Below, in pieces: positions 8,077 through 10,257 of a stretch of DNA of 64,000 bases. The stretch's first letter is position 1. The number at the start of each line of letters is the position of its first letter. The notes under the pieces are model-generated. The model made no database searches, was not told the origin of the DNA, and worked only from the letters and a program-made list of their open reading frames with translations. Source of the DNA: Candidatus Omnitrophota bacterium (GTDB lineage Bacteria > Omnitrophota > Gorgyraeia > Gygaellales > Profunditerraquicolaceae); contig JAPLLX010000001.1 in assembly GCA_026387335.1 (NCBI GenBank), positions 234,620-298,619 on the forward strand, in the 5' to 3' direction. The position numbers and the translations under genes were made by a program.

Positions 8077-10257
8077 ATGAATCTTACCTCTCCCTGGAAT
8101 GCACCTTCGAAGCTCTTATTTCGCACCGCGATTAAGTGTCAGAGGTTGCTACCAAAGAAAAGATCTCAAGCATTCGGGCTCCTGAATACAAAGGAGCGGC
8201 AGAGGATAGAGCGCATTTACGTCATCAATCTGAATCGCCAACCAGCTCGTTGGGCCGAGATGGAGCAGGAGCTAAGACACGTATTGGATTGGTCTGGAAC
8301 TGAACTTTGGAATCTTACTGAGCGGTATGCCGCCGTCGATGCAAATCACTTCTTACAAGAACCGCGAAAAGATGCCGACATCGATCCAATTTATACACTC
8401 GGAGATCAACTCTTCGTAGAGCCCCAACCGATAGTTCTCCCCACCCGGATAGAACTCAATTCTCCGATCTTGATGAGTCGACCTGAGATTGCAGTCGCTC
8501 GTTCACACATCAACGTCTGGCGACAGGTCGCGGCGAGTAATCACGAGTACGTACTCATCCTTGAGGACGATGTGTGGTTTCCATCTGGGTTTGCCCCACA
8601 TCTGGATCAGGCGTGGGGAGAAATCGAGGCTGAAGGCGAAAGGAAAAGCAATTTCGATATTCTCTATTTGTCCTACAGGGAAGTGAAGCATGGCGCCCCG
8701 AAGACCTTCCTTTCAAGTAATGTGTTCCGCCCGGTACGCGGGCTCTGGCATCTATCCGGATACGTTATTTCGCGCGAAGGCGCTGAGAAGCTCCTTCGAC
8801 TCCTTCCTTGTCGAGGTCCCGTAGATCTATGGATAAATCACCAGTTCGGAGTTCTTGATGTACGCGCGACAAGACGGTCTATCATCAGCCAGCGACGCGA
8901 TATTAGTTCCACTAACTCATATTCGATACTTCCCGCGCTCACGAAAATTGGTGCTATCACCAGTGAGAGTTCATCCTTGTTTCACGTTCGCCCAAGTGAG
9001 CGGCCTGTGTTTGCATTTGGGAAGGGAGGCTCTGGCCTCTCATCACTTGCAATGGCTCTTTCCATGCTCGGATACAGATGCTGCAATGATCTCCAAGCGA
9101 TTCCAGGTTCTGAACACGAGATGCTACTTGCGGGAAGAGGTAATCGAGTTTTTGACGCATATGTTAACATCAGGTCTTTGGCTGGGGAAGTCAGAGTTCT
9201 TAGAGAGCGTTACCCTCAGGCTAAATTCATTATCACCACTAGCAAGGCTGGAATTGAGGATGACAGCTATTTGAAAATTCTAGATGATTTTAATGGTGCT
9301 GATATTGCTGTTCTTCATTTAGAGGCAACCAATAAATGGCGGGTCGTTTGTGAACACCTCAGATGCCCACCGCCCGTCTGTTCCTTCCCTGAGTTAGCTG
9401 ATCTCGGACAAAGAAAGCTTCTCTGCGGAACCATTGAAACGGGCGCAGTTCTGAATTGCGAGATTCCCACACGTGATAAGTCACCATGGGTTGTTGAGCC
9501 CTGTCAGGGGTGGCAAGGCATTCGTTGTGTCCCGACAAATGAGGAGGCATCGAATGTTTCAATCCCCGTTAGAATTGACGACTGCTTAGAATTTCTCGAC
9601 AGGAAACGGTGGTTTCTGCGAGACGATACCTTCACGGACAACCTGGCGCTGTTTCGTCCCTCAAACGTCGAGTTTAATTCTGGGATCGGGGCTGCTCTCA
9701 GCGTCAGAAGGGAATCCCTAGGTGTTCGAGAATATAGCGCTGCATCGTTAACCAGTCACGACCGATACTTATTCGGAAGATTTGAGGCAATCATTAAGGC
9801 ATCGAAAGTACCCGGTGTGGTTACAGGTTTTTTTCTCCATCGCGATTCACCGAGGCAGGAAATTGATATCGAGATTGCGGGAAATCGAACAGACCGTCTC
9901 TTGGTCAATGTCTTTTACAATCCTGGCGGCGAAGGTGCGAAGTTTGACTATGGATATAGAGGTGCAGCAAGTTATATCGACCTTGGCTTTGACGCATCAG
10001 AATCCGATCATCTTTATGCAATAGAATGGGGGTCTTGCGAGATTCGTTGGTTTGTTGACAATAGTCTAGCTCACAGGCGCGTAGGTTGGGAACCTACGCC
10101 GATTCCTCATCTTCCGATGGCCATCCATGTAAACGTCTGGCCATCTCGCTCCAAAGAACTTGCTGGCCGGCTGACTAGCGGACGACTCCCAACAACCACT
10201 TTTATTAGGTCAATTGCGCTTGAAGCGAATCGATATCAGAGGTCGTCAGTATTATGA
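8077..10257 (+). CDS. Multidomain fusion: GT25 glycosyltransferase (N-terminal), central Gly-rich P-loop-like region, C-terminal GH16 (lichenase/laminarinase-type) domain.
   Basis: GT25: RIYVINLNRQPARW ... VARSHINVWRQV ... YVLILEDDVWF ... DILYLSY. GH16: GRFEAIIKASKVPGVVTGFF ... EIDIEIAGN (ExDxE catalytic motif) ... LGFDASESDHLYAIEW ... IRWFVDNSL ... VNVWP. These align collinearly with Bacillus lichenase-type GH16. No signal peptide. Confidence 0.75.
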   Translation: MNLTSPWNAPSKLLFRTAIKCQRLLPKKRSQAFGLLNTKERQRIERIYVINLNRQPARWAEMEQELRHVLDWSGTELWNLTERYAAVDANHFLQEPRKDADIDPIYTLGDQLFVEPQPIVLPTRIELNSPILMSRPEIAVARSHINVWRQVAASNHEYVLILEDDVWFPSGFAPHLDQAWGEIEAEGERKSNFDILYLSYREVKHGAPKTFLSSNVFRPVRGLWHLSGYVISREGAEKLLRLLPCRGPVDLWINHQFGVLDVRATRRSIISQRRDISSTNSYSILPALTKIGAITSESSSLFHVRPSERPVFAFGKGGSGLSSLAMALSMLGYRCCNDLQAIPGSEHEMLLAGRGNRVFDAYVNIRSLAGEVRVLRERYPQAKFIITTSKAGIEDDSYLKILDDFNGADIAVLHLEATNKWRVVCEHLRCPPPVCSFPELADLGQRKLLCGTIETGAVLNCEIPTRDKSPWVVEPCQGWQGIRCVPTNEEASNVSIPVRIDDCLEFLDRKRWFLRDDTFTDNLALFRPSNVEFNSGIGAALSVRRESLGVREYSAASLTSHDRYLFGRFEAIIKASKVPGVVTGFFLHRDSPRQEIDIEIAGNRTDRLLVNVFYNPGGEGAKFDYGYRGAASYIDLGFDASESDHLYAIEWGSCEIRWFVDNSLAHRRVGWEPTPIPHLPMAIHVNVWPSRSKELAGRLTSGRLPTTTFIRSIALEANRYQRSSVL

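Follow-up and report, generated by a model that had tools for sequence, protein, structure and literature searches.

Several systems are known in which the synthesis of a beta-glycan is coupled to its remodelling. NdvB carries a glycoside hydrolase (GH) domain of family GH17 and a glycosyltransferase (GT) domain of family GT2 in one polypeptide (PMC10237404), and CGS carries GT84, GH189 and GH94 domains (PMC10834661); in both, a single chain joins a domain polymerizing nucleotide sugars to a GH domain by which the growing beta-glycan is cut and rejoined (PMC10237404, PMC10834661). In fungi, Kre6/Skn1 and the Ghs2–Bgs3 pair of S. pombe couple a GH16 protein to a glycosyltransferase that makes beta-glucan, and Ghs2 works with Bgs3 non-covalently (PMC13612389). 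Here we report on a gene at positions 8077–10257 (+) of a 64,000-nucleotide stretch, called the window below, of contig JAPLLX010000001.1 from a Candidatus Omnitrophota bacterium. It encodes a soluble three-domain enzyme composed of a GT25 glycosyltransferase, a centre derived from Sulfotransfer_4 and a GH16 domain of the lichenase type, and it lies within an uncharacterized mobile cassette. The architecture is common in databases; our view of the protein as a glycosyltransferase-plus-transglycosylase enzyme is a conjecture as far as function is concerned.

GT25 enzymes invert UDP-alpha-sugars to beta-glycosides, and the bacterial ones characterized so far act on lipooligosaccharide (LOS), in agreement with the Pfam description. 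GH16 enzymes act on beta-glycosides with retention; they are viewed as glycanases and transglycosylases that are secreted or work outside the cell. GT25 is not mentioned in the GH16 subfamily roadmap.

The window protein differs from NdvB and CGS in several respects. The GT and GH families are unrelated, and none of the features of cyclic beta-glucan synthases (GT2/GT84, GH17/GH189 and multiple transmembrane segments) is found in it. NdvB and CGS are large membrane proteins exporting glucan to the periplasm, whereas the window fusion is soluble and has no transmembrane segment; nor do NdvB and CGS have a carbamoyltransferase as partner. The fungal pair is eukaryotic; there, the GH16 domain is extracellular on a transmembrane protein and Bgs3 is a beta-1,3-glucan synthase.

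Domain architecture of the fusion protein

The open reading frame (ORF) is uninterrupted and encodes 726 amino acids (aa). Pfam matches, alignments of homologues and an AlphaFold2 (AF2) model divide the product into a GT25 domain (8206–8871; aa 44–265), a relic Sulfotransfer_4 domain (8989–9396; aa 305–440) and a GH16 beta-jelly-roll domain (9559–10236; aa 495–720), all encoded on the forward strand. The model, computed from an alignment of 66 sequences, has a mean predicted local distance difference test (pLDDT) score of 75.4 and shows three folded domains, separated by low-confidence or disordered linkers at aa 275–304 and 448–493. All three domains are under purifying selection, with ratios of non-synonymous to synonymous substitution (dN/dS) of 0.23 for GT25, 0.20 for the Sulfotransfer_4 relic and 0.16 for GH16. 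Judged by hydropathy alone, the protein has no signal peptide or transmembrane segment (maximum 19-residue Kyte–Doolittle window 1.17), and its N-terminus is not hydrophobic.

A previous examination of the letters and their translation alone (the sequence-only reading) had described the protein as a two-domain fusion of GT25 and GH16 on a single polypeptide without signal peptide. The motifs on which it relied are all present: RIYVINL (aa 46–52), ILEDDV (aa 161–166), DILYLSY (aa 194–200), FAFGKGGSGLSS (aa 312–323), EIDIE (aa 595–599), LGFD (aa 636–639) and YAIEW (aa 647–651). The fusion itself is genuine, since both Pfam domains exceed their curated cut-offs, and the lack of a signal peptide agrees with the hydropathy profile. 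The account was incomplete in that the Sulfotransfer_4 relic between the two domains had been overlooked. A frameshift or an assembly join between two genes, for which a break near 9.0–9.4 kb would have been the sign, is ruled out because reading frame and length are kept across hundreds of sequences and the 9.0–9.4 kb region encodes a conserved, folded domain.

The N-terminal domain belongs to GT25 by both the family model and the motif. Pfam Glyco_transf_25 (PF01755) matches aa 46–250 with an E-value of 3.2e-15 (57 bits; cut-off 24), and the DXD motif, E163-D164-D165, is encoded at 8563–8571. This EDD motif is invariant in alignments of 73 and 66 sequences and in 28 of 28 deep representatives, which are the full-length representatives of the family after clustering at 50%. 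The domain is modelled as an alpha/beta fold. Among sequences in the PDB, its sole solved relatives are chains of procollagen galactosyltransferase 1, to the catalytic domain of which aa 134–253 align (E ~6e-6). The PF01755 match and the EDD motif are shared with the bacterial LOS beta-galactosyl- and glucosyltransferases and with procollagen galactosyltransferase 1; the window protein is distinguished from these by its fusion to two more domains, its solubility and its location in a mobile cassette instead of an LOS locus.

The C-terminal domain is assigned to GH16 by the family model, by the E-x-D-x(0,1)-E motif and by the predicted beta-jelly-roll fold. Pfam Glyco_hydro_16 (PF00722) matches aa 546–694 (E 2.9e-26; 92.4 bits against a cut-off of 22). 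The catalytic residues E595-I-D597-I-E599 are encoded at 9859–9873, a family-specific loop F623-D-Y-G-Y-R-G629 at 9943–9963 and W688 at 10138–10140. Amino acids 505–691 align to the solved lichenase 3i4i in the PDB sequences (E 6e-16), with EIDIE in register with the catalytic EIDIEF of that enzyme, and the predicted domain superposes on 3i4i in a Foldseek search with a target TM-score of 0.89 and a root mean square deviation of 1.9 Å. E595, D597 and E599 are invariant in the 73 sequences and in all 28 deep representatives, and W688, D624, G626, Y627, R628 and G629 in both the 73- and the 66-sequence alignments. The claim that the GH16 domain is intact is therefore borne out, as far as its catalytic E-x-D-x-E motif is concerned, in the window protein and across the deep representatives.

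The fold is shared with the Bacillus-type 1,3-1,4-beta-glucanases 3i4i, 1gbg and 1mac (target TM-scores 0.85–0.89), in all of which EIDIE is in register, and the lichenase cleft residues F, N, W and E have kept counterparts in F586, N611, W688 and E570. Unlike the lichenases, to which it is about 25% identical, the window GH16 domain has no signal peptide (by hydropathy only), is fused behind two other domains, carries an arginine for the tryptophan preceding the nucleophile and contains a 10-residue insert. The insert, with FDYGYRG, is invariant in the fusion GH16 domains and absent from lichenases. The arginine, Arg593 (9853–9855), stands before the Q-E-I-D motif; the window clade has Arg at this position, a few representatives have His or Lys, and lichenases as well as four deep branches (P0261, P0286, P0270 and P0288) have Trp. 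Two of these four are the only representatives with canonical sulfotransferase motifs. From the residue pattern, the substitution at position 593, close to the −1 subsite, may go along with a shift in substrate. The NCBIfam equivalog model of BglS (NF047856) gives 101.7 bits, far below its cut-off of 300, so the fusion is not an orthologue of this secreted lichenase.

The middle region is less easily recognized. In the window protein, Pfam Sulfotransfer_4 (PF17784) matches aa 311–388 with an E-value of 0.028 and 14.7 bits, under the cut-off of 22.8; two deep-branching members of the same architecture reach 98 and 87 bits, and short stand-alone relatives of the region are bona fide Sulfotransfer_4 proteins. 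A search of 1.84 billion representative proteins with the middle region alone returned only 138 relatives; of the 29 full-length ones (at least 650 aa), 28 carry the GT25 and GH16 motifs, and most of the others are shorter fragments. Comparison by hhalign of the middle domain of the window clade with stand-alone Sulfotransfer_4 proteins gave a probability of 99.65% and an E-value of 4.5e-25, with a gap of about 45–50 aa. Modelled alone by AF2, the domain has a pLDDT of 84, and the Foldseek matches that cover most of it are Schistosoma sulfotransferases (query TM-scores 0.53–0.60, with E-values just around 1e-3). Homologues with known structures include the Schistosoma oxamniquine-activating sulfotransferase 4mua and SgdX2 (8y9p), with which it shares an alpha/beta core; the motifs ...LGY... 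and W..LC..L..P.P..FP are common to the relic and the Sulfotransfer_4 sulfotransferases.

The homology is thus clear, and both features required for nucleotide binding by a sulfotransferase have been lost. The K/R-T-G-T-T-S loop, which binds the phosphosulfate of 3'-phosphoadenosine 5'-phosphosulfate (PAPS), has become G-x-x-S-G-x-S/T-S in the window clade, and the Gly-rich stretch FAFGKGGSGLSS (9010–9045, +; aa 312–323), described in the sequence-only reading as P-loop-like and lying between the two enzymes, is this degenerate PAPS loop. A classical P-loop NTPase linker was rejected on the basis of the alignments and hhalign. The basic residue of the PAPS loop aligns to position 318, which is G in 47, N in 11 and D in 11 of the 73 sequences and never K or R; K316 of the window protein stands two positions before it, in a column where 48 of the 73 sequences have Pro. 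The 3'-phosphate-binding T-T-R-D..W..S region is missing as well: FIITTSKAG is found instead, followed by a deletion of about 45–50 residues. Canonical sulfotransferase motifs survive in only two of the 28 deep representatives, while the GT25 EDD and GH16 Q-E-I-D-x-E motifs are present in all of them. Because both nucleotide-binding features fail, the protein should not be filed as a sulfotransferase. In SslST, a lanthipeptide sulfotransferase unrelated to this family, the PAPS-loop mutation R12A abolished activity (PMC11143521); by this analogy, the loss of the basic loop residue would mean a loss of activity. From its sequence, we read the middle domain as a pseudo-enzyme kept as a scaffold or ligand-binding module.

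Compared with Sulfotransfer_4 enzymes, the window clade has gained Cys335/Cys336, Cys430 and Cys435. In total, five cysteines lie in the relic domain (9073–9084 and 9349–9381; aa 333–336 and 425–435). C335 and C425 are present in 73 of 73 sequences, C336 in 72, C430 in 71 and C435 in 66. Stand-alone Sulfotransfer_4 proteins share only the C425 position, so the other cysteines are specific to the clade. To judge from their conservation, a role in a metal site or as a redox switch is possible.

The three-gene cassette and its distribution

The gene had been considered on its own in the sequence-only reading. A tblastn search combined with ORF clustering over 84 loci shows that it is the core of a fixed cassette: exactly three genes recur, coding for a GT32-like glycosyltransferase, the fusion protein and a carbamoyltransferase. 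There is no conserved fourth gene across these loci, since every other ORF cluster that recurs consists of shadow ORFs within the cassette. Its span in the window is 7213–11910 (+), or 4.7 kb, as delimited by recurrence and by blastn against the 20 closest loci, in which similarity begins at 7213–7218 and stops by 11910. The genes are separated by 28 bp and −4 bp. By hydropathy, all three proteins are free of hydrophobic segments, and no gene for a transporter, flippase or lipid carrier is conserved beside the cassette.

The GT32-like gene (7218–8048, +; 276 aa) codes for a glycosyltransferase with a DXD-type motif, DVDD, at 7590–7601, and lies directly upstream of the fusion gene in every locus for which upstream sequence is available. 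Its long ORF opens at 7191; homologues align from aa 10 of that ORF and are called as 276 aa elsewhere, and the ATG at 7218 is the likely start since DNA similarity begins at 7213–7218. The protein matches Pfam Gly_transf_sug with 30.9 bits (cut-off 23) and has no significant match in the PDB.

The third gene (10254–11897, +; 547 aa) codes for an O-carbamoyltransferase of the NodU/TobZ type. Its ATG overlaps the TGA of the fusion gene (ATGA), an arrangement that suggests translational coupling of the two genes. Both Pfam domains are strongly supported (Carbam_trans_C, 184.7 bits; Carbam_trans_N, 86.5 bits), as in the O-carbamoyltransferases NodU, TobZ, GdmN and NovN, and residues 238–515 of the cassette enzyme align with them. 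It differs from these enzymes in being shorter (547 against 576–702 aa) and in lying outside any Nod or antibiotic cluster; the score against the NCBIfam NodU equivalog is 267 bits, for a cut-off of 1000. The nearest solved relatives are 7xb6, which is a carbamoyltransferase, GdmN, TobZ and the decarbamoylnovobiocin carbamoyltransferase; their substrates are small-molecule natural products, modified at hydroxyl groups. The gene follows the fusion gene in about 90% of loci. Where it is missing, the downstream ORFs code for integrases, a group II intron reverse transcriptase and a sulfatase fragment, and three have no Pfam hit; no substitute decorating enzyme was found among them. One deep-branch member with an intact sulfotransferase domain keeps the three-gene order.

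The GC content is 0.46–0.49 over 8–12 kb of the window and about 0.42 around it. We found no convincing direct or inverted repeats flanking 7213–11910, and no transposon-like ends or target duplications. Rfam detected no structured RNA or riboswitch at E ≤ 1 in the region 5000–13000, and promoter-like sites occur at chance level. A conserved non-coding leader of about 55–120 bp precedes the GT32-like gene at several loci (L007, L009, L010, L016, L019, L083 and others), and may be the native promoter or 5' untranslated region of the cassette. The window is without this leader, similarity starting 4–5 bp before the ATG at 7218.

The sequence-only reading called the architecture non-standard. The fusion is real, as said above, but it is a widespread, horizontally spread family that is already annotated automatically in databases, under names such as 'family 16 glycosylhydrolase' and 'GR25 family glycosyltransferase'. 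All 120 of the protein matches listed are 71–87% identical to the window protein, are 658–760 aa long (most about 720–730) and carry both Pfam domains. In a scan of 185,579 species representatives, with one genome per species, at least 157 stretches encode a relative of the fusion with 56–86% identity, distributed patchily among many phyla according to their labels. The gene is found on megabase contigs or chromosomes of Syntrophales, Blastocatellia, Acidobacteriota, Desulfosarcina, Bacillota, Rubripirellula and Vicinamibacterales, and in the cultured strains Thiobacillus denitrificans DSM 12475, Pseudomonas weihenstephanensis DSM 29166, Rhizobium wuzhouense, Flavobacterium sp. PS2, Chryseobacterium sp. 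Leaf405, Paraburkholderia sp. EB58 and Acidovorax facilis. Desulfosporosinus bins also carry the cassette. Nine plasmids encode the fusion, four of them conjugative, including an IncC plasmid of a clinical Citrobacter freundii, and the cassette was found on a CTnDOT-type element. At 72 loci, the GC content of the host flanks ranges from 0.30 to 0.70 and that of the cassette tracks it with a slope of just 0.43, which is what repeated transfer with incomplete amelioration would give. These data show horizontal spread of the cassette, which has reached many bacterial phyla as well as plasmids and conjugative elements. A phage origin was rejected, tblastn giving no match in 50,697 phage records.

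Some contig stretches are identical or nearly identical under different taxon labels: L007 and L008 (Gallionella and Methylobacter), L027 and L028 (Blastocatellia and Clostridia), and L057 and L058 (Flavobacteriaceae and Arenicella). Errors in binning or a very recent transfer are the explanations suggested by this. The labels of short contigs from metagenome-assembled genomes being unreliable, the claim of a distribution over many phyla rests on the megabase contigs, isolates and plasmids. Two further loci with a protein identical to that of the window (L096 and L097) were considered as a second insertion site and rejected: their flanks are 100% identical to the window, and they are the same organism resampled. 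On plasmid pSWIT02 of Rhizorhabdus wittichii RW1 (L086, 9105–12781), the cassette seems to be degenerating; annotation there covers only the GH16 half of the fusion, and an IS4 transposase lies between a short hypothetical ORF and a truncated carbamoyltransferase gene.

Genomic neighbourhoods

In the window, the cassette is inserted in an ordinary part of the chromosome, between a sensor-kinase operon and miaB. Upstream lie genes for a sensor kinase, a response regulator and an unannotated membrane protein, and downstream miaB, miaA, hflX and hrcA-grpE-dnaK-dnaJ. The product of the ORF directly upstream (5789–6982, +; 397 aa) is rich in hydrophobic segments and matches neither Pfam nor PADLOC. 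This ORF comes after the sensor kinase (3350–5416) and a response regulator that is seen in L095, and is not conserved beside the cassette in other genomes. The hrcA-like ORF (16280–17026, +; 248 aa) matches only the last ~90 positions of the HrcA C-terminal Pfam model; it also has an N-terminal winged-helix domain, and represents a short HrcA variant or an internal deletion. The ORFs of at least 150 aa over positions 1–58500 are almost all on the forward strand, and the few on the reverse strand overlap larger forward ORFs. Given this and a steadily rising cumulative GC skew, the window appears to lie on one replichore, with a very strong strand bias.

The flanking genes vary from locus to locus. 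The 138 nearest ORFs match 146 Pfam families, of which the commonest are tyrosine integrases (7) and ATPases of the OLD/AbiL/Gabija type (4–6), followed by UvrD/GajB (3), LmuB (3), reverse transcriptases of the DRT type (3) and several transposase families. Defence genes occur within 10 kb in seven of the 10 distinct annotated contexts other than the window, a proportion for which there is no matched background rate.

One metagenomic locus, L089, has a different composition. P0261, a deep-branch protein with the order GT25–Sulfotransfer_4–GH16 and an intact sulfotransferase domain, is encoded there 112 bp upstream of an ORF of 127 aa (4637–5020, +) that is a putative lanthipeptide precursor. 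The N-terminus of this precursor (MSNRRSFLTK...) is twin-arginine-like, its leader, AWESPEFRASLTDAQWEALPENPAG, is NHLP-like, and its core contains about nine G-N-G-C-S repeats. It is followed by genes for a LanM synthetase (5034–8147) and a JmjC/Cupin_8 hydroxylase (8126–9073), and an ABC exporter gene is divergent. The locus may be a cluster for a glycosylated or sulfated lanthipeptide (class II-like).

Possible role of the cassette

We regard it as plausible rather than probable that the cassette is a self-sufficient cytoplasmic glycan assembly line, in which sugar transfer, remodelling by GH16 and capping by a carbamate succeed one another. Its inputs would be universal precursors only, namely nucleotide sugars, carbamoyl phosphate and ATP. 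The GT32-like and GT25 transferases would build a short glycoside or oligosaccharide on an acceptor, the linkage made by the GT25 domain being expected to be beta because GT25 enzymes are inverting. The tethered GH16 domain would then cleave or transglycosylate a beta linkage, resulting in transfer to the final acceptor, trimming of length or cyclization; the presence of an inverting GT25 and a retaining GH16 in one soluble chain suggests such a relay. The relic sulfotransferase, placed between the two catalytic domains, would provide a scaffold or a module for ligand binding. The carbamoyltransferase would finally cap a sugar hydroxyl with a carbamate, which is likely to be the last step since its solved relatives carbamoylate hydroxyl groups of small molecules. 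The cytoplasmic location is supported by the lack of hydrophobic segments in the three proteins and of transporter or lipid-carrier genes conserved nearby. Coupled transfer and transglycosylation had already been put forward in the sequence-only reading and, by analogy, has precedents in other families, in NdvB, CGS and Ghs2–Bgs3.

Several points weigh against this assembly line. The inter-domain geometry of the AF2 model is unreliable (predicted template modelling score 0.58). The replacement of the tryptophan by Arg593 next to the nucleophile, together with the invariant FDYGYRG insert, makes a lichenan-like glucan an improbable substrate of the GH16 domain. Carbamoylation is not obligatory, since about 10% of loci are without the carbamoyltransferase. 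The cassette has no membrane component, so the analogy with NdvB and CGS is one of chemistry only. Sequence does not predict which donor sugars, acceptor and linkage are involved, and a literature search found no paper describing the fusion family, its architecture or the cassette.

The neighbourhoods raise another explanation, that the cassette is a conflict or defence module directed at phages or further mobile elements and is itself transported by mobile elements as cargo. Its enzymes would glycosylate and then carbamoylate a macromolecule of the invader or the host or a nucleotide-derived small molecule, and so block infection or trigger abortive infection. This concerns the role of the cassette and is compatible with the chemistry of an assembly line. 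It agrees with a patchy family (157 of 185,579 species representatives) under strong horizontal transfer, and with the abundance of OLD/AbiL/Gabija-type ATPases, GajB, LmuB and DRT-type reverse transcriptases among the 138 nearest flanking ORFs. Individual loci are also suggestive: a Gabija-like OLD-TOPRIM protein and UvrD occur at one and HicB and BrxR at another; IS21 and DUF262 on the IncC plasmid; an Abi family protein by the pSWIT02 copy; a Shedu nuclease and a type I restriction–modification S subunit on an Aliarcobacter plasmid; a SEFIR/TIR protein elsewhere; and AGS_C, E2-CBASS, PycTM and SatD on a CTnDOT-like conjugative transposon. However, none of the 5027 PADLOC models (PADLOC-DB 2.0) is matched by the three cassette proteins or the upstream ORF, so that a catalogued defence system was rejected, and no nuclease, sensor or typical effector is conserved with the cassette. 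Only about 10–15% of the nearest neighbours are defence-like, again with no matched background for comparison, cargo for metabolism or resistance also travels on mobile islands, the neighbours in the window are housekeeping and regulatory genes, and no matching paper was found. A defence role is unlikely in our estimation. Its more specific form, a previously unrecognized mobile anti-phage or anti-plasmid system acting through cytoplasmic glycan chemistry, we consider decidedly unlikely; the effector or signal would be a carbamoylated glycoside, or a macromolecule of the invader or host would be glycosylated. Such a system would explain the self-contained three-gene form, the spread across phyla and the recurrent siting beside genes associated with Gabija, CBASS/Pycsar, Shedu, TIR, Abi and BREX.

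The other explanations concern the acceptor and the GH16 domain. The acceptor might be a peptide or protein, the fusion being a tailoring glycosyltransferase, ancestrally also a sulfotransferase, comparable to the collagen galactosyltransferases that act on hydroxylysine. The solved relatives of the GT25 domain, all procollagen galactosyltransferase 1 chains, fit this, as does the L089 locus, where P0261 with its intact sulfotransferase domain is accompanied by the lanthipeptide precursor, LanM, JmjC/Cupin_8 and ABC exporter genes; sulfonated lanthipeptides with dedicated sulfotransferases are known (PMC11143521). Yet the locus consists of one short metagenomic contig and a shorter duplicate, from a distant branch, adjacency does not amount to participation, and L089 contains neither a GT32-like gene nor a carbamoyltransferase gene. 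No precursor, LanM or hydroxylase is a conserved neighbour in the window or at 80 genome loci, and the gaps of 28 and −4 bp leave no room for a hidden ORF inside the cassette, so that a peptide acceptor seems clearly improbable. An ordinary envelope-glycan enzyme for lipopolysaccharide (LPS) or LOS, capsule or exopolysaccharide, with GH16 trimming the polymer, would accord with the LOS substrates of characterized bacterial GT25 enzymes, with JGI annotations reading 'GR25 family glycosyltransferase involved in LPS biosynthesis' and with a weak Caps_synth hit of the partner protein (E 0.093, below the cut-off). It is nevertheless very unlikely, as all three proteins are without a membrane anchor by hydropathy; genes for a flippase, polymerase, exporter or lipid-carrier transferase are not conserved in its neighbourhood; the cassette is highly conserved in lineages whose envelopes differ greatly, among them those of a Bacillota chromosome and of Desulfosporosinus bins; and its site in the window, between the sensor-kinase operon and miaB, is not an envelope locus. 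Lastly, the sequence-only reading had raised the possibility that GH16 is a non-catalytic module for carbohydrate binding or targeting. The GH16/concanavalin-like fold does serve as a lectin in other proteins, and several substrate contacts of the lichenases differ here, for example Trp, which is Arg593, and a residue that is basic in lichenases according to the alignment and is Ile572 in the window protein. Against this, E595, D597, E599 and W688 are invariant while the sulfotransferase catalytic motifs have decayed in the same proteins, and GH16 has the lowest dN/dS of the three domains; we find a binding module extremely improbable.

The family would represent an intracellular GH16 enzyme with an intact active site, wired to a Leloir glycosyltransferase; a catalytic GH16 in the cytoplasm is unusual. 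Judging by its motifs, it also offers a clean natural case in which one domain of a multi-enzyme has turned into a conserved pseudo-enzyme while its neighbours stay catalytic. Since it often sits in defence and mobile islands, the cassette might be a conflict system of a new kind. Small, self-contained and present in cultured strains and on a clinical IncC plasmid, the cassette is directly testable. If the relay is true, the synthase-plus-transglycosylase logic of cyclic glucans would extend to soluble enzymes and to new pairs of CAZy families, and would point to a new, probably carbamoylated glycoside from bacteria of many phyla.

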